Shown piece after piece: positions 1 through 44,245 of a stretch of DNA of 64,000 nucleotides. The stretch lies in the NCBI RefSeq assembly GCF_965213655.1, contig NZ_CBDBZT010000003.1, forward strand, positions 1,927,733 through 1,991,732, read 5' to 3'. Source of the DNA: Candidatus Palauibacter sp. GTDB lineage: Bacteria; Gemmatimonadota; Gemmatimonadetes; Palauibacterales; Palauibacteraceae. Numbering within the stretch: the first letter of the stretch is position 1; each line of letters starts with the position of its first letter. The position numbers were made by a program, and so were the translations under genes. Below the pieces are notes generated by a model. That model was not told where the DNA came from and made no database searches. It worked only from the letters and a program-made list of their open reading frames with translations.

Positions 1-3000
1 GAAGGAAGGTGGCCACGAGGACGCCGAAACCGACGGACGTCGCCACCGGAACCAGATGGCGGGCGTGGGCGCTCGTCTCGAACATCAGCGGGGCCACGCC
101 GAGAAACGTCGTGAGCGACGTCAGAACGATTGCTCGGAACCGGACCTTCGAGCCGGCGATGATAGCGTCTCGCGGCGGCATGCCGGACTTCCGGAAGTCG
201 TTGATGAATTTGACCATCATCAGTGAGTCGTTGATGACGACTCCGCTCACCCCGACCAGTCCCTGCTGCGACCATACGCTGAGATCGAGGCCCAGCAGCA
301 TGTGTCCCACCAGTGCGCCGACCACGCCCAGGGGTATGACGGCCAGCACGATGAACGGCTGAAGCCACGATCCGAACGGGATTGCCAGCAGAACGTACAT
401 CAGAATCAGGGCGAAGAATCCCGATCTCGCCAGCGCGGCATTGACATTGTCCTGCTGCTTGCGCTGCCCCCCGAAAGCATAGTTGAAGCCCGGATCCTGC
501 GCTTCCAGAGGTGCGAGGAAATCACGCTCGAGGCGATCGTCCACCTGTCGACCCGTCGCGTTGACTGCGTCCACGTCCGCCGTGATCGTCACCGCTCGCC
601 GCCCGTCGAGCCGGTGGATCGCGGATGCCGGCCGCGCGAAACGCGCCGAGGCGATCTGTCCCAATGCCACCTCACCGCCGCCCGGCGTCCGCACCGTGTA
701 CCCCTCCACATCGGCGGCGGAGTCTCGCTCGTCTTCCGGGAGCCGGACGTAGACGCGGACGTCCTCGCGACCCCGAGGCACCCTGACCGCTTCGACGCCG
801 AAGAACGCGCCTCGTACCTGGCCGGCGAAGTCACCGACCGTCAACTGGAGCGATCGGCCAGCCGGCTCAAGCTGTAGCCGCAGTTCTTCGAACCCCTCAT
901 CCAGATTGCTCCGCACATCGAAGACGCCATCGATGGCGCCGAGTTCCGCGACGACGTCCTCGGCGATCGAGCGCAGCCGGTCCGCATCGGGATGGGAGAG
1001 GTCGTAGTGGACGGGAAGGTCTCCGCCGGCGATGCTGCTCGTTATCGACAGCGCCTTCGCCTCGTGGATCGTGCCCATTTCCTCCCGCCACGCCCGTTCA
1101 AGGGCTGAAGCCGGGATGCCGTGGCGTTCCCAATCGATGAGCTTGAACTGGACCGTTGCGACATGACTGCGAGGGGGTCGAAACCCGTCGCCAGCCAGAG
1201 GATCGAAGAGTTCGGCCGACCGCCCCAATGTGACGGCGACGTCGACATCGAGCGGCAGAGCGTCCGCCGCCGTCCCACGCTCCGCCGCAATGCGCGCGAC
1301 GGCCCGGTGTCCGGCGGCCTCCACGCGGTCGGCCACGGCGCTCGTCACCTCGCCCGGCGTCCCGGTGGCCAGTTGCAGATCCGCGGAGACGACGTCGCCC
1401 TCCAGCGGGACGACGAACCGGCTCGGGACGATGCCCGAGACGACGAGGCCCACCGAGAGGACGACCAACCCCGCGGCAGACGTGAGCACGATAAGCGGCT
1501 GCTCCGTGGCCAGACGCAGCCCGCGGTCCAGGGGCCCGTCCGCCAGACGCTTCAGCAGGCCGTCAACGCGTTCGCGGATCCCGTGCAGAAGTTCAGCGGT
1601 TCGGTGGCCAGCCCGTTGGCCGGGTTCAGGCAGGTGCGAGAGATGGTTCGGCAGAACCAGCAGCGACTCGAAGAGCGAAACGAGCAGGACGGTGATGACG
1701 ATGATGGGGACGGTTCGGGCCAGTTTGCCCTGGGGGCCCGGAACCGTCATGAGGGTCGAGAATGCGATGATCGTCGTGAGCACCGAGAAGACGACGGGAC
1801 CGCTGACCTGCCGTGTGCCACGTATAACCGCGGCCAGCCCACCGGTGCCCTTCTCCCGCTCCGAGTAGACGCTTTCTCCCACGACAATCGCATCATCCAC
1901 GACGATTCCCATGGCGAGGATGAGGCCCATCAGGGAGAACATGTTGATGGACATGCCCAGGAAGCCCATCACGAGGAACGTTCCCGTGTACGAGACGGCC
2001 AGACCCACGGCGACCCATAGCGCGAGCCGGATCTCCAGGAACAGTGCCAGGGCGATGAAGACCAGGACGAGCCCCATCAGCCCGTTCTTCACCATCAGCC
2101 CGAGTCGGCCGCCCACCAGGGAGGAGTCGTCGCTCCAGGTCGCGATGTCCACGCCCGCGGGCAGGCCTGGCAGAGCCTCGGTCACCCATGCCCGCACCGC
2201 CTCGCCGATTTCGAGCACATGTTCGTCGGACGTACGGTATACGTCCACGCCGGCCGCGGGACGGCCGTTGTAGCGAACGCGGAGATCGGTGTCCGCGAAG
2301 CCGTCCCGCACCGTGGCGATGTCGCCCAGCCGGACCAACGTCCCGTCCGGTTGGCTCAACACGACGATGTCCTCGAAGTCGCCCTGGTCGTAGTTGCGTC
2401 CCAGCGTGCGGACGGAGAATTCCTCTTCCGGGCTCGATACCCGGCCAGCCGAGAGCTCCAGCGACCCCTGTCGCACCGCCTGTGCGACATCCTCCAGCGT
2501 AAGACCCAGCGAGCGAAGCCTCGACTGGGGAAGCTCGATCGATACTTCGTACGGGCGAGTCCCGCTCGTGCGGGCGAGCGACACTTCGGGAAGGGCGGAG
2601 ATTCCCTCTTCGATCCTGTACGCCAGCTCCTTGAGCGTGCGCTCCGGGACGTCGCCGTATACAAGCAGTCGCAACACGCTCTGGCGGCTGGTCACCTCGC
2701 GCACCTCAGGCCGCTCCGCGGACGCCGGGAACGTGGGGATGCGGTCCACCATCGCCCTTGTTTCGTTGACGGCGCGGCTCATGTCCGTGCCCACCTCGAA
2801 TTCCGCGATCACCAGTCCGAGCCCCGCGGAAGCGGTCGCCACCACGCGTTCCAGTCCTCCCACGCCCCGGATTTGCTCCTCGATCGGGCGAAGAATGGAT
2901 TCCTCGACCGCCTCCGGGGAGGCGCCCGGATAGGGCACGAGGATCTGAACGCGGTCCAGCGACGCGTCGGGGAGTACTTCCTGCACGAGACCGAAGGCCG

Positions 3001-3064
3001 CGTACAGGCCGCCCGCCAGAAGAACCAGCATGACGGCGGTCACGGCGGTGTCGTTCGTCGCCAT
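1..3064 (-). CDS. RND-family efflux transporter permease subunit (AcrB/HAE1-like); 3' end lies beyond window start
   Basis: Absent from the ORF track because there is no stop codon inside the window. My reverse-complement reading from the ATG at 3064 (alternative in-frame ATG at 3100, bounded upstream by TAG) gives MATNDTAVTAVMLVLLAGGLYAAFGL...RVQILVPYPGASPEAVEESILRPIEEQIRGVGG..., a typical AcrB N-terminus (TM1 then the porter domain). The frame stays open to position 1 with RND-like hydrophobic blocks. The overlapping + strand ORFs (1121-2020, 2219-3109) are R/P/A-rich antisense artefacts. Confidence 0.8.
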   Translation of the reverse strand, partial: MATNDTAVTAVMLVLLAGGLYAAFGLVQEVLPDASLDRVQILVPYPGASPEAVEESILRPIEEQIRGVGGLERVVATASAGLGLVIAEFEVGTDMSRAVNETRAMVDRIPTFPASAERPEVREVTSRQSVLRLLVYGDVPERTLKELAYRIEEGISALPEVSLARTSGTRPYEVSIELPQSRLRSLGLTLEDVAQAVRQGSLELSAGRVSSPEEEFSVRTLGRNYDQGDFEDIVVLSQPDGTLVRLGDIATVRDGFADTDLRVRYNGRPAAGVDVYRTSDEHVLEIGEAVRAWVTEALPGLPAGVDIATWSDDSSLVGGRLGLMVKNGLMGLVLVFIALALFLEIRLALWVAVGLAVSYTGTFLVMGFLGMSINMFSLMGLILAMGIVVDDAIVVGESVYSEREKGTGGLAAVIRGTRQVSGPVVFSVLTTIIAFSTLMTVPGPQGKLARTVPIIVITVLLVSLFESLLVLPNHLSHLPEPGQRAGHRTAELLHGIRERVDGLLKRLADGPLDRGLRLATEQPLIVLTSAAGLVVLSVGLVVSGIVPSRFVVPLEGDVVSADLQLATGTPGEVTSAVADRVEAAGHRAVARIAAERGTAADALPLDVDVAVTLGRSAELFDPLAGDGFRPPRSHVATVQFKLIDWERHGIPASALERAWREEMGTIHEAKALSITSSIAGGDLPVHYDLSHPDADRLRSIAEDVVAELGAIDGVFDVRSNLDEGFEELRLQLEPAGRSLQLTVGDFAGQVRGAFFGVEAVRVPRGREDVRVYVRLPEDERDSAADVEGYTVRTPGGGEVALGQIASARFARPASAIHRLDGRRAVTITADVDAVNATGRQVDDRLERDFLAPLEAQDPGFNYAFGGQRKQQDNVNAALARSGFFALILMYVLLAIPFGSWLQPFIVLAVIPLGVVGALVGHMLLGLDLSVWSQQGLVGVSGVVINDSLMMVKFINDFRKSGMPPRDAIIAGSKVRFRAIVLTSLTTFLGVAPLMFETSAHARHLVPVATSVGFGVLVATFL

Positions 3065-3160
3065 GTAGGTGACCGGGCCGCGCCCGGCGCCGGGACGCAT
3101 GCTAGCTAGCTATGAATCTCGGTATGGGCTTTCACCGGCACGGCGAGCGGGACGGTAAAG

Positions 3161-5560
3161 TCATGTGCAAAGCGCGTCGATGTGGGCGGCAGTGCGGGAC
3201 GCTGTATCGCGAATCGTCGCGGGCAGCGTATCGAAATCGTCCAGCCCGCAGGCTTCGGCAATCGCGGCCTTCACGGTGGAAGTCGCCGTGTCGGGCGCGA
3301 ACTCATCTGCGGCGATAAGCCGTAGCGAGCCATCGAGATTCCGCCACAGTCCTGCCGCCGCCGCCAGCCGCTCGGCGTCACCCTCGGCGATCAACCCGCG
3401 CCTGCTTGCCGCCCGGAAAGCGGCGCCCGCGTCGTATTCCGGCAGCTCCGGCGCATGACCGTTGGGAGTCACATGTAGGTATAGGGCGGCGCGCTCGATG
3501 TCTCCAAGACCGCCGCGCATCCCGGCAATCGACGTGAGATCCGGTTCGACGCCGCGCTCTCCGGCGTCGCGCAACTCGGCCAGCAACAGCTCGCGGGCGG
3601 CTTCCTGGCCCAACGCATCCCGCAGCGCCTGCTCGACGCGTTCCCCGACCGCCGCGTCGCCGGACACGAACGCGCAGCGCGCCCGGGCGAGGGCCAGAAG
3701 CTCGGCGCCTGAACCGGGGTTCCGGAGGTTTTCCGCGAACGCGTCGAAGGAATGGAACTCGTCCAGCGCGCCGCGCGGGAGGGGGGCGAGCAGCAGGTTG
3801 TTGCGCGACAGCGCACGGAGCGCCTTCCGGAAGCGGCGGCACAGCGCCTCGTGGTACTTGGCCGGTCCGCCTTCGTACACGAACCGGACATCGAGCACCT
3901 CCCCCGGCATCGCCTCGCCGTTCGTCAGGAGCCCCGGAACAACGACCGCCACTCCGCCGCTGGCGCGCGGCCGACCCCGGTCGGCGAAGTCCTCCTCCAC
4001 CGCGGCCAGCACCGTGGCGATGGAGGCTTGGGCGACGCGAGACAGCGTCGTGCCCGCCTCGGCGATCGACAGGCTGCCACGCATCACGTGCACGGCGATC
4101 TGGAAGACCTTTCCGTTCGACCACTCCAGCGCCGCCTCGACCGCCTCGCCGGCGTCCTGCACGTGGATGTCGTCGAGCTGGGCCTTCATCTCGGGGAGGT
4201 CCAGTTCGTGCGTCCAGTAAAGGCGCGCCAGCCCGCAGCGCGCGATGGCCTCGAACTCGGGATCCGGCCCGATTCCGTCCGGCAGCTCCAGATCCGTGAA
4301 TTCCCGATCCCGCAACCTGTCCAGCAGGGCCGGGGAGCGGTTGATCCACTCGGCCAGCCGCGGGGCGGAGGCATGGATCTCCGTGATGGCATCGAACGCG
4401 TCCGGGCGCTCCGCGAACGCCCGGCTGTCGTAGGCGCTCCAGTCGTCGATCTCGGGATAGAACTGCGCGCGCTGTCGATCGAGCAGCGGATGGATGGTCT
4501 CGAACCACCGCTTCGGGAACATGGCGAGAGAGTTCATCTGGATGTAGCTGCCCGGCAGCTGCGGCGAGACTTCCTCGCCATGATGCTGCAGGAGCGGATA
4601 GCGCCGGTTGGACGTGTGATGGTCCGCGTGCCGCTGCATGTTGTAGTACAGCCAGTTGGTGAACTTGTATGCGGCGCTCCAGGCGTGCCTCGGTTTCACC
4701 GGCTCGTACCTGCCCGTGGGCATGCGGATGCGTCTTAGTCCATAGTGCTGCACGTAGTTGCTGACCTTCATCGAGAAGACGACGCTGCCGCACAGGATGA
4801 GGTAGATCAGCAGGGCCCAGGGGCCGCCCCACCAGACGAGAAGGCCGTACCAGAAGACGATTTGCACGGTGTAGCGCCAGAACGCATTCGTGTGGTGCCA
4901 CGGCGGCAGATGGCGGCGCCTCAGTCGGCGCAGTTCGAACCGCCAGGCGCCCAGGAGGTTGTTCCGGATCTCCGGGAGCAGGTACTGCCAGAAGCCAACG
5001 CCCTTCGGCGCGGACCCGGGGTCCAAGGGCGTACACACGCGGGGATGATGGATGTAGACGTGTTCGGTCGCGTAGTGCGGGTAGGACGAGGAAGCCAGCA
5101 GGAACTCGCCGAGCCGACGCTCCCAGAGAACGCGCCGGTGGACCAGTTCGTGGCCCACGATGAAGACCGTCTGGCCCACGAGCGTGAGAATGGCGGCCAT
5201 GCACCCGACTTCCCACAGGGCCAGATGACCGGAGACCAACACCTGCCAGAGCGAGAATACGAACGTCACCGGCCAGAACACGCCCCACAGCCAGAGCGAG
5301 AGCTTGTACAGGAACAGCTGGCTTTCGTGGGTCGTGGCCGGATCCATGTTCCGCTCTTCCAGGCCGAACAACCTGTCGAAGCGGTCCGCAAGCGTGAAGA
5401 AGACCAGCGGACCCGCAAGCCACCAGCCGCCGTACACGGCGGCGCAGACGACGAGCGGGAAGATCGCGAGGGGAGCGAAGTGCGGCAGCGCGTTCGAGAC
5501 CGAAGGCTCGACGACGCGACTGCCCATGGCGATGGTCGCGTCGGAACTGTGTGCTTCCAT
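3161..5560 (-). CDS. AlkB-type integral-membrane di-iron alkane/fatty-acid hydroxylase fused to a C-terminal GlnE/GlnD-like nucleotidyltransferase-type domain
   Basis: 799-aa ORF. Histidine boxes GHELVHRR (HxxxH), EHVYIHH (HxxHH), NYVQHYGL and MQRHADHH match the AlkB/desaturase family. The C-terminal ~400 aa has a polymerase-beta-like NTase signature VAVVVPGLLTNGEAMPGEVLDVRFVYEGG and GMRGGLGDIERAALYLHV, resembling the GlnE GGxRDIEF region. A strong SD GGAGGA lies 8 nt upstream of the ATG at 5560. The overlapping 759-aa ORF 3378-5657 is a low-complexity artefact. Confidence 0.8.
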   Translation of the reverse strand: MEAHSSDATIAMGSRVVEPSVSNALPHFAPLAIFPLVVCAAVYGGWWLAGPLVFFTLADRFDRLFGLEERNMDPATTHESQLFLYKLSLWLWGVFWPVTFVFSLWQVLVSGHLALWEVGCMAAILTLVGQTVFIVGHELVHRRVLWERRLGEFLLASSSYPHYATEHVYIHHPRVCTPLDPGSAPKGVGFWQYLLPEIRNNLLGAWRFELRRLRRRHLPPWHHTNAFWRYTVQIVFWYGLLVWWGGPWALLIYLILCGSVVFSMKVSNYVQHYGLRRIRMPTGRYEPVKPRHAWSAAYKFTNWLYYNMQRHADHHTSNRRYPLLQHHGEEVSPQLPGSYIQMNSLAMFPKRWFETIHPLLDRQRAQFYPEIDDWSAYDSRAFAERPDAFDAITEIHASAPRLAEWINRSPALLDRLRDREFTDLELPDGIGPDPEFEAIARCGLARLYWTHELDLPEMKAQLDDIHVQDAGEAVEAALEWSNGKVFQIAVHVMRGSLSIAEAGTTLSRVAQASIATVLAAVEEDFADRGRPRASGGVAVVVPGLLTNGEAMPGEVLDVRFVYEGGPAKYHEALCRRFRKALRALSRNNLLLAPLPRGALDEFHSFDAFAENLRNPGSGAELLALARARCAFVSGDAAVGERVEQALRDALGQEAARELLLAELRDAGERGVEPDLTSIAGMRGGLGDIERAALYLHVTPNGHAPELPEYDAGAAFRAASRRGLIAEGDAERLAAAAGLWRNLDGSLRLIAADEFAPDTATSTVKAAIAEACGLDDFDTLPATIRDTASRTAAHIDALCT

Positions 5561-5669: not shown

Positions 5670-8096
5670 TTACGGAACGAGGACGCGTTCGCGCTTTCTG
5701 AGCAGGAAGAGGCCCTCGTTCCAGCTCGAGATCGCGATCACGCCGCTCTCGAAGTACGGATAGTTGCTCCACGTGCCGCCGAAGGCCGTCGCGTCGTCGT
5801 CCGTGGGGACGGTGTCGAAGAAGGCCACCTCGACAGGGTTTTCAGGGTCCCGGATGTCGAGGATCCTCAAGCCGCCCAGAAGGTTCGACTGGTAGAGGAA
5901 GTCGCCCCGCACGTACTGGTTGTGGTCGATCGAGCGCGTCTCGGCGAAATACTCGGTCGCCAGCACCGGGTCGTCGAGTTCCACCACGTCCCACACGAGC
6001 GTCCGCGTATTGGAGACGGTACCCCCCTCCTCGTCGAGTTCGTCGCCGAGGAAAAAGTAGCGGTGGTCCTCGGTGAGCCATCCCTGGTGGGCGGCGACGG
6101 CGCCGGGGTAGCCGGCGCTCGCGAGCGCGACGGGATTCTCCTTGTCGGTGATGTCGGAGATCCCGAGCGCATCGATCGACGCGTGGAAGCAGATCTCCCG
6201 GCCGACGTAGTCCTCGTCGGGTCCGTCGTAGATCACGCACTGGGCGTCGTGCGTGTAGCCGCCGCCGAGGAAGCCGCCGATGTCGGGGTCCGCGAAGCAG
6301 CCGGCGAAGCGGGGGTTCGCCGGATCGCGGATGTCGATCATGTGCAGACCGCCGCCGCACGCCTCGCCGCCGCCGCTGCTGCCGACGGCGTGCGCGAAGC
6401 CGGTCTCCTCGTTGATCACGATGTTGTGCGAGCTGAACACGCCGTCGTACACGGCCGTCTCCTCGAACATCACGGGCGGATCGCGGACGTCCCTGAGTTG
6501 CGTGAGGTCGAAGATCTGGACGCCATGCGCGCCGGCGTTGTCCGCCACGATGAAGGCGTGGTCGGCGTAGGTCTTGATGTCGCGCCACAGGTTCTCGACG
6601 CCGCCCTCGGTGAGCGGGAGTTCGCCCACGTAGACCGGCGCGTTGGGGTCCGTGATGTCGACGAAGGAGGTGCCGTTGGACTTGCCGAGGAGGACGTACT
6701 CGCGGCCGGTCTGCGGATCGGTCCAGCCCCAGATGTCGTTCGCGATCGACGTGGGGCCGGCGCCGAGTTCGGCGAGCGGGAGGAAGGCGACGAGATCCAC
6801 GTCGGTGCACGCGTAGTCGAGGGCGGTCCCGTCGTCACAACTCACCGTCTCGCCGGTGACGGCGGTCATGTTCGGCCGTTCCGGATCGCGGAGCGTGGAC
6901 GACAACTCCCATGGGCCGCCGGGGCCGGAGCGTTCGAGGACCGCGGCCGCTCCGAGCCTGAGGTCGGCCTGACCGGCGCCGACCACCGCCATGTCCGGCC
7001 CGACTCCGAGGCTGGATCCGAAGGCGGCACCGGGACCGAACGGCGCCGCATCGACGGACTGGAGGTGGTCGAGCGAAACCCCGTCAAGGACGTACGCCGC
7101 CCCGGTCCCTCCGGCCGTGCCGGGCGCCCCGACCCACAGCAGCCCGCCGGCGACGGCCAGCGAGGTGCCGAAGCCGGCAGCGCCGGACACGTTGGGCGGG
7201 CTCACGAGTCGCGAGGATCCCGAGGGCTCGCTCACGTCGAAGGCTGCGACGACGCCCCCGCCCGCCTGGCCGGGCGCGCCCGCGAAAAGCGTGTTGCCCT
7301 CCAAGGCGAGGGACGCGCCGAAGCGGGCCCCGGCGTCCAGGCCCTCGAGCACGAACGAGCCGGCCGGCCGCCAGGCGTCCCCATCGCGCTCGAAGCGGTA
7401 CACCGCGCCACGGCCACGATCGCTGCCGGGCGCGCCCACGATGAGCAGGTCGGCGTCGGCGACGAGGGCGGCCCCGAAGCGATCAGCCCCTTCGGGCGAT
7501 GGGCTCCCGAGACGGCCCTGCGGGGTGACTTCGCCGTCCGGCTCGACGGCGTAGACGTAGACGACGCCTGGCTGCGCGGGCGCCGGCTGGCCGAAGCGCG
7601 GCAGGTCGCCGAGCCCGCCCGGCGCTCCGAGGAAGGCGGCGTCGGCCATCATCGCGACCGCGCTCCCCGCGCCGGCGCGCGCCTCGGCGGCCGGATCCAG
7701 CGCGGCGCGCTCGACCCAGGTCCCTTCCCGCCGCTCGAACAGGTAGGCGCGACCGCGCCTCTCCTCCGCCCCGGGGGCGCCGACGAGGAGCCGCTCACCG
7801 GCCCAGGCGACAGCCGTGCCGAACTGGTCGCCCACCGCACCCGCCCCGGGCCTTAGCGTCTCGGCCACGGCCCACGCGTCATCGCCGCCCTGCCGGTGCA
7901 CGTACACCGCACCCGCCTCCGGGTAGGTGGGAAGCCGGATCTCCGCGCCGTTGCGGGCGACGAGCACGTCGTCCCCCATGAGCGCGATGGAGGCCGCGAA
8001 CCCCGAGCCCACGGTCACCGGGAGAGTCTGGGCCGCGACGAGCCCGGGGGTGGCCAGCAGGCCTGAGATCAGGAACGGGAGCAATCCGGCACGCAT
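5670..8096 (-). CDS. secreted FG-GAP repeat / LVIVD-repeat beta-propeller protein
   Basis: I choose the internal ATG at 8096 (MRAGLLPFLISGLLATPGLVAAQ signal peptide, SD GGAGGTG upstream) over the track start at 8189. The N-terminal half has repeated ...LVGAPG.../...FAGAPG... FG-GAP-like blades. The C-terminal half has LVIVD-type motifs (HMIDIRDPANP, LRILDIRDPENP). Confidence 0.75.
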   Translation of the reverse strand: MRAGLLPFLISGLLATPGLVAAQTLPVTVGSGFAASIALMGDDVLVARNGAEIRLPTYPEAGAVYVHRQGGDDAWAVAETLRPGAGAVGDQFGTAVAWAGERLLVGAPGAEERRGRAYLFERREGTWVERAALDPAAEARAGAGSAVAMMADAAFLGAPGGLGDLPRFGQPAPAQPGVVYVYAVEPDGEVTPQGRLGSPSPEGADRFGAALVADADLLIVGAPGSDRGRGAVYRFERDGDAWRPAGSFVLEGLDAGARFGASLALEGNTLFAGAPGQAGGGVVAAFDVSEPSGSSRLVSPPNVSGAAGFGTSLAVAGGLLWVGAPGTAGGTGAAYVLDGVSLDHLQSVDAAPFGPGAAFGSSLGVGPDMAVVGAGQADLRLGAAAVLERSGPGGPWELSSTLRDPERPNMTAVTGETVSCDDGTALDYACTDVDLVAFLPLAELGAGPTSIANDIWGWTDPQTGREYVLLGKSNGTSFVDITDPNAPVYVGELPLTEGGVENLWRDIKTYADHAFIVADNAGAHGVQIFDLTQLRDVRDPPVMFEETAVYDGVFSSHNIVINEETGFAHAVGSSGGGEACGGGLHMIDIRDPANPRFAGCFADPDIGGFLGGGYTHDAQCVIYDGPDEDYVGREICFHASIDALGISDITDKENPVALASAGYPGAVAAHQGWLTEDHRYFFLGDELDEEGGTVSNTRTLVWDVVELDDPVLATEYFAETRSIDHNQYVRGDFLYQSNLLGGLRILDIRDPENPVEVAFFDTVPTDDDATAFGGTWSNYPYFESGVIAISSWNEGLFLLRKRERVLVP

Positions 8097-8206
8097 CGTC
8101 ACCTCCAGCGGAAACCTGCTACGTCCAGCGTCATCCATCATTGTCCAGCATGTCCGTCGTTGTCCGTCGTTCGCGGGACACCGGGTCATCGTCGGTCAGC
8201 CCCCGC

Positions 8207-9523
8207 TCAGCCCGGACGGGCGCGCGCCAGCGGGTTCACGCCGGCCAGCGCCGCCCCGACGAAGGGGAGCGCGAGTACCCACAGCCGGAGTCCGAGCGGC
8301 CCGGCGCCGTCCGCCGCGATGCCGCCGAGGGCGAGGAGTGCGAGTCCGGCGCAGGCCACGACCGCGCCGCCCGCGAGCAGCCAGCCTGGACGGGATCGCC
8401 CGCCGCGCCCGCTACGCTCCAGGCGCCCGAAGGCGAGCACGCACGGAACCAGCGCCAGCGCGTACACGGCAAGCCACAGGGGCCGAAGGGCCCACCAGAG
8501 TCCGGTGGCAGGGTCGACGGCGAGACCCACGTCCCCCAGCAGCAACGCGACCCCGATGACCAGCGTCGCGGCCGTCAGGTGCCACAGGAAGATCGTCATG
8601 ATCATCCCGTTCACCAGCACCGTGGCCGTCCACGGCACGGCGCGATCGAGCCAGCGCCGCATCGGACCCTCGATCGACAGCAGCAGCCCTGTGTGCACGA
8701 GCGCCAGCGCCAGCATGGGCAGTTTCGGGGGCAGCGAGTTGCTGATCTCGTCGCCCGGGACGCTCACCATGCTGACCGGGTACGGTCCGAACATCACCAG
8801 GCCGACGAGTGACACGCCGCCCAGGGCGGCCCACGCCGCGCCCCTCCGCAGGCCCGCCGTGTATCCGTCGCGCCACGCGTAGCCCAGCTGGTGGACGGCG
8901 ACCCAGATGAAGGCGTAGTTGGCCCAGCCCACGACGGTGAGGTCGGCGGCCAGGAAGAGGACGTCGTCCACGATCGCCGCGGCGACGAGCGCCCAGAACG
9001 ACCAGAGCCCGTAGCGCCGCCAGGCCGCGTACGTCAGAGGCACGAGGAGCACGACCATGATGTAGACGGCGAGGAACCAGGTGGGGATCAGCGCCATTTG
9101 CGACAGGCCGCCCACGAGCCCGGCGTCGACGCCCCCCAGTCCCATGCCGGCGCCGAGCAGCACCCACACGGCGAGCAGCGCCAGGACCGGACCCAGGAGG
9201 CGGCGGAGCCGAGCCTCCAGCCATTCCGCGTAACTCTTCCCCTTGTCGCTGGCCGACCGCCACGACACGCCGTTCGAGTAGCCGCCGACGAGGAAGAAGA
9301 TCGGCATCACCTGGAAGACCCACGTGAGCCACCGCGTCCACGGCTGGTACTCGAGCGCGTTCGAGAGCGTGATTTCCCCGCCGCCCGTGTACGGCGCCGC
9401 CTGTATCCAGTGCCCGAGCACCACCGCGCCGATCGAGAGGGCACGGAGGAAGTCCACGTACCGGTTGCGAGACTCCGGCGTCTGCGCGGCCACCCCCGCC
9501 GCCCGAGACCAGAGGCCGTTCAC
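8207..9523 (-). CDS. acyltransferase family 3 (OafA/OpgC-like) membrane protein
   Basis: GTG start at 9523 with GGAGG SD. RYVDFLRALSIGAVVLGHW followed by about 10 hydrophobic helices is typical of the acyltransferase-3 family. Confidence 0.8.
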   Translation of the reverse strand: MNGLWSRAAGVAAQTPESRNRYVDFLRALSIGAVVLGHWIQAAPYTGGGEITLSNALEYQPWTRWLTWVFQVMPIFFLVGGYSNGVSWRSASDKGKSYAEWLEARLRRLLGPVLALLAVWVLLGAGMGLGGVDAGLVGGLSQMALIPTWFLAVYIMVVLLVPLTYAAWRRYGLWSFWALVAAAIVDDVLFLAADLTVVGWANYAFIWVAVHQLGYAWRDGYTAGLRRGAAWAALGGVSLVGLVMFGPYPVSMVSVPGDEISNSLPPKLPMLALALVHTGLLLSIEGPMRRWLDRAVPWTATVLVNGMIMTIFLWHLTAATLVIGVALLLGDVGLAVDPATGLWWALRPLWLAVYALALVPCVLAFGRLERSGRGGRSRPGWLLAGGAVVACAGLALLALGGIAADGAGPLGLRLWVLALPFVGAALAGVNPLARARPG

Positions 9524-9557: not shown

Positions 9558-11594
9558 TCACGGCAGGCCCAGCGCGACGTATTCGGCCGGATGGTCGCTG
9601 CCCCCGACCGCGACGACGATGTACTGCTTCCCCTCGTGCAGGTACGTCATCGGTCCGCCCGTCGTCCCCGACGGGAGTTCCGTCTCCCACACCACGTCGC
9701 CCGTCGCCTTGTCGTAGGCCCGGAACGTCGTCCCCCAGTGCGTGTTCGGTGTCCCGATCACGGCATCGCTCCCCTCGCCGATGAAGAGCAGCGACCCCGT
9801 CACGAGCGGCGCCGGCCGGTTCGCGTTCCCGAGCGGGGGAAGGTCCAGGTCCTCGAGGAGCGGATGGTCGTTGGGACCGTCGCCGTTCGCCGCCATCCAA
9901 AGGTGTTCGCCCCGGTTCATGTCGATCGCCGTGATCCGCCCCCACGGCGGTTTCACGATCGGGAGGCCCTCGATCTCGGCCCGCGGCCACCCTCCCTGCG
10001 TGCCGTACTCCATCTCGTCCGGTTCGGAGATCTCCGACAGGCTCCACACATTCGGGAGCGTGTGCGACACCGCGTAGTAGACACCCGTTTCCGGGTCGAA
10101 GGCGCCGGTGTTCCAGTTACCCGCCCCCCACGCGCCGGGGATGACATAGGTCCCGATCTTCCCTTCCACCGTCCCGTCCTGGTTCGGCGGCGTGAACAGC
10201 GGACCCATAATGAGCGAGTCGGCAAGCGCCAGCACCCGCTCGCGGATCTCCGGCGTGAAGTCGATCAGGTCTTCGGGCGTCACCCCCTGGCGGTCGAAGG
10301 CGGGCGGCCGGCTCGGAATCGGCTGCGTCGGCGAGGTCGCCTCGCCCGGCACCGTCGACTGCGGCACCTCCACCTCCTCGATCGGCCACACCGGCTCCCC
10401 GGTCCGGCGGTCGAAGGCGTACAGGAACGCCGTCTTGCTCGCCTGCATCACCGCGTCGATCGGGCGTCCGTCGACGTGGATCCGGCCCAGCACGGGCGGA
10501 CCCACGGTGTCGTACTCCCAGATGTCGTGGTGCACCATCTGGAAGTGCCACACCCGCTCGCCCGTCGCCGCGTCGAGCGCCACGAGGCTGTTCGAGAACA
10601 GGTTGTCGCCGGGCCGGTGCCCCCCGTAGTAGGCGGAGGTCGGCGCCGAGAGCGGCACGTAGACGTAGCCGAGTTCGTCGTCCGCGCTCAGGCAGCACCA
10701 CGAGCCCAGGTCGCCGGATTCCGCGAGCGACCCGTCGCCCCAGGTATCCGCCCCGAACTCCCCTTCCTCCGGAATCACGTGGAACGTCCACCGGAGACGG
10801 CCCGTGCGGGCGTCGAAGCCGCGTATGTCCTCCCGGACGCTCCCCCGCCACTCCGTCCCCCCATCTCCCGCCCCGTCCACCGTCCCCGCCAGGACGATGA
10901 CGTCGCCGACCACGATGGGCCCCGAACTCCAGCCGTACCGTCCGCCGGCGGGAAGCTGCAGATCCACCCGTCCCCCGTCTCCGAAGGACGTGATGGGCTC
11001 TCCGGTTTGAGCATCGAGCGCGTACATGGAGGGGCCCCGCACCGAGATGATCCGTCCGGTGGATTCACTGTTTCCGCCATCGCCACCGGTGTCACCGCTC
11101 CCGCCGGCCGCGCCGGAGCCCCGCCAGTAGGCCACGCCGCGGAAGCTCCGCCCCGTCGCGTCTTCCGACTCCGGCCGCTGGATCCAGCGCGTCTCCCCCG
11201 TCCCGGGATCGAAGGCTTCCACGAGGCCGACGCCATTGGGCGCGTAGAGCGTCCCCTCGATGAGGACGGGCGTCCCACGCAGGTAGCTGTTGACGTTCAG
11301 GTCCGGGAACTCGTCTGTCAGCGCCGCATCGACGGCCGGCCGCCGCCACAGGACCTGCACCGCCGCCACATGCTCGCGATCGATCTGCGTGAGGGGGGAA
11401 TACCGGTTGAAGGAGTTCTGTCCCCCGTAGTACGTCCACTCATCGCTAGGGGGCGGCAGCCGGTCGGCTCCACCGTCCGCGCACGCCGTGCTCACGAGCG
11501 CCGTGGCCAACCCCACGAACGCCAACGACCGGAAGGCGACGTTCCTCACATGAAGCGCGCTTGCCGGGTCGTCTGGCCATCGCCGTGCGTTCAT
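9558..11594 (-). CDS. PQQ-dependent dehydrogenase, methanol/ethanol (quinoprotein ADH) family
   Basis: Internal ATG at 11594 with GGAGGAG SD; signal/lipoprotein-like N-terminus ending ...ALVSTAC. WTYYGGQNSFNRYSPLTQIDREHVAAVQVLW matches the first propeller blade of quinoprotein ADHs. The vicinal Cys pair in GSWCCLS matches the adjacent disulfide of this family. Eight-bladed W-repeat pattern throughout. Confidence 0.85.
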   Translation of the reverse strand: MNARRWPDDPASALHVRNVAFRSLAFVGLATALVSTACADGGADRLPPPSDEWTYYGGQNSFNRYSPLTQIDREHVAAVQVLWRRPAVDAALTDEFPDLNVNSYLRGTPVLIEGTLYAPNGVGLVEAFDPGTGETRWIQRPESEDATGRSFRGVAYWRGSGAAGGSGDTGGDGGNSESTGRIISVRGPSMYALDAQTGEPITSFGDGGRVDLQLPAGGRYGWSSGPIVVGDVIVLAGTVDGAGDGGTEWRGSVREDIRGFDARTGRLRWTFHVIPEEGEFGADTWGDGSLAESGDLGSWCCLSADDELGYVYVPLSAPTSAYYGGHRPGDNLFSNSLVALDAATGERVWHFQMVHHDIWEYDTVGPPVLGRIHVDGRPIDAVMQASKTAFLYAFDRRTGEPVWPIEEVEVPQSTVPGEATSPTQPIPSRPPAFDRQGVTPEDLIDFTPEIRERVLALADSLIMGPLFTPPNQDGTVEGKIGTYVIPGAWGAGNWNTGAFDPETGVYYAVSHTLPNVWSLSEISEPDEMEYGTQGGWPRAEIEGLPIVKPPWGRITAIDMNRGEHLWMAANGDGPNDHPLLEDLDLPPLGNANRPAPLVTGSLLFIGEGSDAVIGTPNTHWGTTFRAYDKATGDVVWETELPSGTTGGPMTYLHEGKQYIVVAVGGSDHPAEYVALGLP

Positions 11595-11707
11595 GGACTC
11601 CTCCGTATTCCGCGCGCCCCGATCCCCGGCCCTCACTCGCTCCTGTGCGTACGTGTCCCTTCAAGATTGTTCTGGAACTCGCCCAGCGGGAGGGGTCGCG
11701 TGAGCAG

Positions 11708-43115: not shown

Positions 43116-44245
<1,130 letters not shown>

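Follow-up and report, generated by a model that had tools for sequence, protein, structure and literature searches.

The protein considered here brings together features of three described systems. The first is the AlkB family of membrane alkane hydroxylases, known from Fontimonas thermophila (FtAlkB and FtAlkB-G; PDB 8f6t and 8sbb) and from Pseudomonas putida GPo1, and found in natural fusions with rubredoxin such as FtAlkB-G and the Dietzia-type AlkB-Rd. The second is GlnE (PDB 3k7d; NCBIfam PRK14108), a protein of two halves whose adenylylation domain recognises a protein substrate. The third is the srp gene cluster of sponge symbionts, whose description is said to go back to Nguyen et al. 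(JACS, 2021). According to the parts of the srp literature that we could cover, these clusters encode a precursor SrpE, a YcaO protein SrpC and a brominase SrpI; their hallmarks are an LCCCW core and an ITEEQL recognition sequence, SrpC forms three thiazolines and SrpI brominates the Trp (bioRxiv 10.1101/2023.06.09.544420; PMC10286304). SrpC alone shows poor activity and yields partial products in Escherichia coli, according to the covered part of PMC10286304, and there is therefore room for missing partner proteins. Here we analysed a window of 64,000 nucleotides (the whole stretch of DNA under study) from Candidatus Palauibacter sp., in which one gene encodes an AlkB-type membrane oxygenase fused to a GlnE-like domain. 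We propose, with a probability of roughly 0.5, that this AlkB-GlnE fusion is a conserved accessory part of the pathway by which sponge symbionts make srp-type proteusins, and that it serves the oxidative tailoring of a hydrophobic peptide or its handling at the membrane.

Architecture of the AlkB-GlnE fusion

The open reading frame (ORF) is a real gene. A database entry from Gemmatimonadota, 'fatty acid desaturase [Candidatus Palauibacter sp.]', has a sequence 100% identical to its 799-aa product. An earlier note on this DNA had assigned the N-terminal 380 residues, with their four histidine boxes, to the AlkB/desaturase enzymes and the C-terminal ~400 residues to a GlnE/GlnD nucleotidyltransferase-like domain, and both assignments were borne out. 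For the N-terminal part the motifs, Pfam, phmmer and Foldseek all agree. Its match to Pfam FA_desaturase (PF00487; E 2e-22) scored 80.5 bits against a cut-off of 29.7; phmmer aligned it with the AlkB proteins whose structures have been solved (8f6t, E 8.5e-48; 8sbb, E 9e-37), at about 27-30% identity over ~350 residues; and an AlphaFold2 model built from 60 homologs, with a mean predicted local distance difference test score (pLDDT) of 79 and a predicted template modelling score (pTM) of 0.76, matched the same two structures in Foldseek (E 7e-12 and 6e-10). The fold and the four His motifs, HExxH[KR], EHxxxHH, NYxxHYGL and QRHxDHH, are those of the AlkB enzymes named above, and all nine motif histidines are invariant in 60 homologs. 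On this evidence we regard residues 1-380 as a bona fide AlkB-type di-iron oxygenase domain whose catalytic centre is intact.

For residues 381-799, sequence comparison shows homology to GlnE, namely to its adenylylation half at the C-terminus. They match Pfam GlnE (PF03710) with 28.8 bits against a cut-off of 24, and NCBIfam PRK14108 over profile positions 638-979 of 986 (E 8.5e-24), with 83 bits against an equivalog cut-off of 724. An exhaustive HMMER search with the 419-aa C-domain matched true GlnE proteins of ~1000 aa on their C-terminal half (E 1e-13 to 3e-48), PF08335 is annotated (precomputed) in several homologs, and the AlphaFold2 model matched the GlnE domain structures 1v4a (E 1e-9) and 3k7d (E 7e-8). 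Similarity of this domain to nucleotidyltransferase families, which had been named beforehand as the test of the assignment, is thus significant. The homology to GlnE covers the whole 420 aa and extends to the fold; the window protein differs from GlnE in having one half instead of two and in being fused to a membrane enzyme.

The point of fusion also has a parallel. The alignment to 8f6t reaches residue 391 of the window protein, just before the position of the rubredoxin domain, and in the AlkB-rubredoxin fusions a soluble cytoplasmic domain is likewise appended at the same C-terminal point; by homology to AlkB, the C-terminus of the window protein would be cytoplasmic. However, the window protein has no fused or nearby rubredoxin and carries the 420-aa GlnE-like domain instead. 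Because this domain has a nucleotidyltransferase fold and no conserved Cys/His cluster, it cannot be an electron donor, and we rejected a role as a substitute for rubredoxin in electron transfer, having found no such cluster in the alignment of homologs. In the literature that we searched, this AlkB extension is neither annotated nor given a function.

The nucleotidyltransferase core of the C-terminal domain is degenerate. We aligned 152 C-domain sequences with MAFFT, including 18 true GlnE adenylylation halves, and this alignment and the phmmer alignment to 3k7d gave the same register, in which 'S-D-L-D-L-I-F' of GlnE corresponds to 'E-V-L-D-V-R-F' of the window protein. The first Asp position of GlnE is thereby occupied by V555 (a VxD state), the second Asp is kept as D557, which is nearly invariant in the family, and R559 lies at a hydrophobic strand position. 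The earlier description of a 'DxR in place of DxD' was a register error, as the DxD of GlnE aligns to V555-L-D557, with the first Asp lost and the second kept. Across the relatives the first acidic position is mostly Glu, it is Asp in one, and otherwise it is V, T, A, K or P; the canonical DLD is present in one relative (P0098). The G[GS] motif has become TN (GLLTNGE, residues 543-549, versus G[KR]LG[SG]RE in GlnE), and every AlkB fusion examined has 'LLLA-PLP-RG' where GlnE has the third-carboxylate segment LYEVDxRLRPSG (NNLLLAPLPRG, residues 587-597, in the window protein). The GGLxDxE motif, by comparison, is retained, with R682-GGLGDIE standing against GGLxDxEF of GlnE; this is the GGxGDIE region which the earlier note had pointed out. 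The losses at the first Asp, in the G[GS] motif and over the third-Asp/RLRPSG segment make it very probable, indeed almost certain, that the GlnE-like domain is not an active nucleotidyltransferase. The suspicion that its active site is degenerate and the domain non-catalytic is therefore upheld, and strengthened by the loss of the G[GS] motif and the RLRPSG segment.

Conservation along the protein was compared as the frequency of the majority residue, which is 0.80 in the AlkB part (residues 26-354), 0.82 in residues 355-530, 0.66 in the nucleotidyltransferase core and 0.64 in the C-terminal helices. The low conservation of the core fits a relaxed active site. Some lineages lack the last ~100 aa. 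These shortened variants of ~650-700 aa (P0053, P0067 and P0120; loci L005, L030-L033 and L036-L039) lack the GGLxDIE motif along with the rest of that segment, and in the loci examined LCCCW-type precursors lie immediately 3' of their gene. One could still argue that the domain is an active enzyme which transfers AMP or UMP to the peptide, to the AlkB domain or to a partner protein, and that an ExD/xxD metal site is enough for this; the near-invariant D557, the Glu found at the first position in most relatives, the DLD of P0098, the retained GGLxDxE and the Pfam GlnE match above the gathering score would all be in keeping with it. We consider this highly improbable, because the first carboxylate is a Val in the window protein and varies freely elsewhere, the G[GS] motif is TN, the LYEVDxRLRPSG segment is missing in all fusions, and the core is among the least conserved parts of a protein whose last ~100 aa some variants have lost. 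A further sequence, P0170, had been taken for an AlkB fusion with canonical GlnE motifs, that is, for an evolutionary intermediate; it was rejected, as Pfam identified it as a fragment of a true GlnE.

Distribution of the fusion and its srp-type neighbourhood

Far from being unusual, as the earlier note had regarded it, the architecture belongs to a large conserved family. Among the candidates scored, 901 proteins were found at E<=0.001. Each of the best 120 is a full fusion, at 59-82% identity. A scan of one genome per GTDB species gave 372 AlkB-GlnE fusion loci, of which the best 80 (53-83% identity) all come from metagenome-assembled genomes (MAGs) and are distributed over Gemmatimonadota, Acidobacteriota, Chloroflexota, Nitrospirales, Alpha- and Gammaproteobacteria, Binatia and Acidimicrobiia. 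The carriers span eight or more phyla, and the pairwise identity of the fusion across phyla is 49-100%. They bear names such as Ca. Palauibacter irciniicola, rhopaloidicola and ramosifaciens, Ca. Poriferisocius and Ca. Porisulfidus, or belong to the SB06xx, RHO, COS and Plut bins, names which we take to point to sponge or coral hosts. With hosts read from the genome names in this way, the distribution suggests an architecture that is common but ecologically narrow. A more divergent cluster of relatives takes its name from Boseongicola bins, which also belong to the SB06xx series.

To describe the neighbourhood, ORFs were called and clustered in 86 loci (the window and homologous loci, with a flank of 10 kb at most), and out-of-frame ORF clusters (e.g. 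31, 37 and 43), which are artefacts of high-GC DNA, were discarded. The recurrent neighbours are listed in Table 1. They match the NCBIfam families TIGR03793 (precursor with a nitrile hydratase leader peptide, NHLP), TIGR03796 and TIGR03797 (NHLP bacteriocin ATP-binding cassette (ABC) exporters), TIGR03604 (cyclodehydratase of thiazole/oxazole-modified microcins, TOMM) and TIGR03882 (leader-binding domain). When the comparison was confined to the 57 homologous loci flanked by 9 kb or more on each side, an srp-type gene was present in 52 (91%), and the nearest one lay within 300 nt in 35; YcaO was found in 43 of these fully flanked loci and an NHLP-type ABC exporter in 46. The precursors end in ...ITEEQ[LM]EAISAGLCCCW or in ...LDEE[RQ]LEAIAAGLCCCG. 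The neighbours of the fusion share with the published srp clusters the LCCCW core, the ITEEQL sequence, the YcaO protein, the two transporters and the spread over many sponge-symbiont phyla; many clusters here, however, have LCCCG, LSCCL or RCCCWA cores and no C-terminal Trp, and a Cys-rich stretch is the sole feature common to all associated cores. The association is kept while the gene order takes at least six different forms, and it extends over eight or more phyla. In Vicinamibacteria the fusion stands between the ABC genes and the methyltransferase and YcaO genes, with gaps of ~70 nt, and a divergent member, with 36% identity in the C-domain, lies in a cluster of the same kind with an RCCCWA core. 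Pairwise identities of the fusion and of YcaO correlate (Pearson 0.78), with means of 64% and 69%, respectively.

We also ran the comparison in the reverse direction, with a metagenome scan seeded on YcaO. The fusion was present in 5/5 srp-type loci, in four of them within about 300 nt of YcaO, and in 0/75 loci with a ~40%-identical YcaO (in 43 of which the flank reached 3 kb or more on one side). The neighbourhood of the fusion is thus the srp proteusin cluster, and the association holds in both search directions; this srp-type NHLP/YcaO context in the relatives, like the efflux pumps described below, was absent from the earlier note.

The same loci bear on another explanation, namely that the fusion is an ordinary hydroxylase of hydrocarbons, lipids or isoprenoids, serving catabolism or detoxification, that its GlnE-like part is a regulatory or stabilising appendage, and that the srp genes merely travel with it on a sponge-symbiont island that moves from phylum to phylum. 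The AlkB motifs are intact and the domain shares ~30% identity with structurally solved alkane hydroxylases; a pyrroloquinoline quinone (PQQ)-dependent alcohol dehydrogenase and an efflux pump of the resistance-nodulation-division (RND) type are nearby in Palauibacter; a polyprenyl synthetase adjoins the fusion in 13 loci; of the 57 loci with full flanks, five (L003, L035, L045, L051 and L068), and the locus of P0140 as well, have no RiPP genes (genes for ribosomally made peptides with post-translational modifications) near the fusion; and an RND-fused version of the domain lies in a non-RiPP locus with squalene-synthase-like genes. Transposase genes were also seen near some loci, as a mobile island would have it. 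Mere co-travel, however, sits badly with srp-type genes in 91% of the fully flanked loci, usually within 300 nt, in at least six gene orders and sometimes on both sides of the fusion, and with the outcome of the reverse test (5/5 versus 0/75). In addition, the synteny with the PQQ alcohol dehydrogenase and acyltransferase is found in Palauibacter only, and no rubredoxin or reductase lies near the fusion. We hold this explanation to be rather unlikely.

Besides the srp genes, RND genes flank the fusion in several phyla, in both orientations. Two relatives, P0160 and P0185, are RND (AcrB-type) proteins of ~1520 aa which carry at their C-terminus a degenerate GlnE-like domain of the same subfamily, on a pump instead of an oxygenase. 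The C-domains of the window protein and P0160 are 32% identical (E 8e-49), and the motifs WSAYDS, REFTDLELP and GLARLYWTHE, which lie in residues 355-530 and are specific to the family, are common to both; the RND protein encoded in the window is 34% identical to the RND part of P0160. By sequence, the AlkB enzyme, the GlnE-like domain and the RND pumps are joined by a link of the Rosetta-stone type. The P0160 locus (L086:10001-14578), the only RND-fusion locus that was read, also encodes a membrane fusion protein and two squalene/phytoene synthase-like proteins. As no RiPP genes were found there, the GlnE-like domain is not strictly tied to RiPPs. The pumps raise the thought that the fusion does not build the product at all, and that it protects the cell, remodelling lipids or oxidising stray product within the membrane in concert with the RND pump and with export. 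The recurrent RND adjacency in several phyla, the C-domain common to AlkB and RND proteins and the usual place of the fusion at the cluster edge beside the transporters would agree with such a role; the immunity genes of RiPP clusters, on the other hand, usually encode small membrane proteins or ABC systems. The conservation of the fusion, close to that of YcaO, fits any core role and does not discriminate. We regard self-protection as improbable.

Some further observations concern the loci themselves. The fusions of three bins labelled Gammaproteobacteria (L034, L037 and L039) and of an Acidimicrobiia bin (L021) are 74-78% identical to the Palauibacter gene. The Palauibacter gene order recurs in L037 and L039, and L034 is too short to tell; the order in L021 is different, with fusion, polyprenyl synthetase and ABC pair. 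Either a recent transfer of the cluster between phyla or mis-binned contigs may account for this likeness. Two adjacent AlkB-GlnE copies lie 5' of YcaO in L073, L080 and L083 (some Gammaproteobacteria and Ca. Porisulfidus), and L077 has two convergent copies separated by an ABC-type gene, with no YcaO detected in that locus. In 13 Longimicrobiales-type loci (L010, L019, L020, L023, L025, L026, L028, L029, L050 and others) the polyprenyl synthetase gene stands directly between the AlkB-GlnE and RND genes. A protein of ~433 aa (L005:14875-16164, minus strand, and about 35 other loci) has an NHLP leader-like N-terminus fused to an alpha/alpha toroid resembling prenyltransferases and squalene-hopene cyclases. 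It is conserved in srp-type clusters, and some of its loci have no detected short precursor next to it. The ~375-aa protein adjoining YcaO (L069:5282-6409, plus strand, and 42 other loci) had no Pfam or NCBIfam match.

Gene surroundings in the window

The features of the window and the recurrent neighbours in relatives are collected in Table 1. The fusion gene is followed by an RND gene after a gap of 60 nt without a terminator, and the encoded RND protein is 79% identical to that of L001. L001 and L027, the closest relatives, have the gene order fusion, RND, ABC, ABC, precursor (with a GLCCCG core) and the 375-aa protein. Because the ABC-ABC-precursor genes of these loci lie past their RND gene, the srp genes of the window's genome are, by analogy, probably located just beyond the window start. 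The three genes upstream of the fusion, for an FG-GAP protein, an Acyl_transf_3 protein and a PQQ alcohol dehydrogenase, were considered as members of the system and rejected, their synteny with the fusion being confined to Palauibacter. An ABC-transporter ATPase region elsewhere in the window (43538-44227, minus strand) is ~30% identical to NHLP-type exporters; this looks like generic ABC similarity and not like a part of an srp cluster.

Table 1. Features of the fusion gene, its flanks in the window and its recurrent neighbours in the 86 loci
Feature	Position (nt)	Strand	Residues (aa)	Evidence or remarks
AlkB-type oxygenase and GlnE-like domain fusion, whole gene	3161..5560	minus	799 aa	ATG at 5560, TGA 3161-3163
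AlkB-type membrane di-iron oxygenase domain	4421..5560	minus	1-380	Pfam PF00487, PDB 8f6t/8sbb sequence and fold, invariant His
AlkB motif HELVHR	5135-5152	minus	137-142	
AlkB motif EHVYIHH	5045-5065	minus	166-172	
AlkB motif NYVQHYGL	4736-4759	minus	268-275	
AlkB motif QRHADHH	4616-4636	minus	309-315	
Post-AlkB linker and N-terminal helical part of GlnE-like module	3971..4498	minus	355-530	Conservation 0.82
Degenerate nucleotidyltransferase core	3611..3970	minus	531-650	Alignment with 18 GlnE adenylylation halves; phmmer to 3k7d; conservation 0.66
C-terminal helical region, PF08335/GlnD_UR_UTase-like	3164..3610	minus	651-799	RGGLGDIE at 682-689
RND (AcrB-type) transporter gene, directly downstream of fusion	1..3100	minus		ACR_tran E 2e-156; cut by window start
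FG-GAP / choice-of-anchor B protein, upstream, co-directional	5670..8189	minus		
Acyl_transf_3 membrane acyltransferase, upstream, co-directional	8207-9523	minus		
PQQ-dependent alcohol dehydrogenase, upstream, co-directional	9558-11636	minus		
Fused YcaO cyclodehydratase				60/86 loci
NHLP-leader precursor				59/86 loci
C39-peptidase ABC exporter and second ABC exporter				60/86 loci
375-aa protein				43/86 loci
Short HlyD-like protein				39/86 loci
RND pump				24/86 loci
S-adenosylmethionine (SAM) methyltransferases				20/86 loci
Polyprenyl synthetase				13/86 loci

Proposed role and significance

As the fusion is a large, strongly conserved and uncharacterised neighbour of the srp genes, it is an obvious candidate for a missing step of maturation or export. 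The near-constant srp neighbourhood and the frequent RND pumps make it likely that its role has moved away from plain alkane degradation, and in the relatives the context of this AlkB homologue is a RiPP cluster and not an alk operon. In the mechanism that we propose, an AlkB-type di-iron oxygenase would sit in the inner membrane with its GlnE-like domain in the cytoplasm, and would work with a pathway made up of an NHLP precursor whose core is LCCCW or LCCCG, a fused YcaO cyclodehydratase, and exporters of the NHLP type (C39-ABC and ABC); it may also act next to an RND efflux pump. The AlkB domain would carry out an O2-dependent oxidation at the membrane. Its substrate would be either the core itself, which is rich in thiazolines and very hydrophobic, or a lipid or isoprenoid group attached to this core. 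The reaction might be a hydroxylation or a desaturase-type dehydrogenation, for example of thiazoline to thiazole, and we consider the latter because no recognisable azoline dehydrogenase was found among the conserved neighbours in the clusters. The dead GlnE-like domain would be a non-catalytic docking or regulatory module which holds the NHLP leader, couples the enzyme to the exporters, or does both; since the adenylylation domain of GlnE recognises a protein substrate, the GlnE-like domain is a candidate dock for the protein-like NHLP leader. The peptide substrate, the reaction and the role of the C-domain are all inferred. The more definite version of this proposal, in which the fusion is an AlkB-family RiPP tailoring enzyme, acting as azoline-to-azole oxidase or C-H hydroxylase and recruited to the leader and to ABC/RND export by its dead GlnE domain, is put forward tentatively and we think it rather unlikely.

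Several points weigh against a role in the srp pathway. The functional case is guilt by association throughout. The YcaO gene, the NHLP precursor and the NHLP-type ABC gene are all unseen across the 64-kb window, which ends inside the RND gene. The PQQ alcohol dehydrogenase, three genes upstream of the fusion in Palauibacter, fits ordinary alkane or alcohol oxidation too. No rubredoxin-type ORF (C..CG...CP.C) was found in the window or in 89 loci; a partner gene may lie elsewhere in the genome. To these are to be added the loci named above in which the fusion has no RiPP genes near it, and the P0160 locus, whose want of RiPP genes tells against a strictly leader-specific role of the domain. 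Our literature searches, finally, gave no membrane enzyme of the AlkB/desaturase family that acts on a peptide.

Nor does the literature that we searched mention an AlkB-GlnE fusion or an AlkB gene in srp clusters. In the parts of the srp literature covered, no desaturase is tied to the cluster and the word 'desaturase' occurs solely for an unrelated ether-lipid cluster; within this, the covered part of PMC10286304 was searched with terms other than 'desaturase', and the ORF may be drawn without comment in the original 2021 paper, which lay outside the search. The fusion is in this sense a candidate peptide-tailoring enzyme of a type unreported in the literature searched.

Few secondary-metabolite loci of sponge microbiomes are as widespread and as highly transcribed as the srp clusters, whose ecological role is described as elusive (bioRxiv 10.1101/2023.06.09.544420). 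If the fusion does act on the peptide, AlkB/desaturase chemistry would be extended to ribosomal peptides, with the first membrane desaturase/AlkB-type enzyme on such a peptide as far as the literature searched shows, and the GlnE-like part would represent a new type of domain for leader recognition. Even otherwise, the family is a clear case of an enzyme domain, that of GlnE adenylylation, which has become a non-catalytic module and is carried by two different membrane proteins, AlkB and RND, and the fusion is a marker gene common to sponge symbionts of eight or more phyla.

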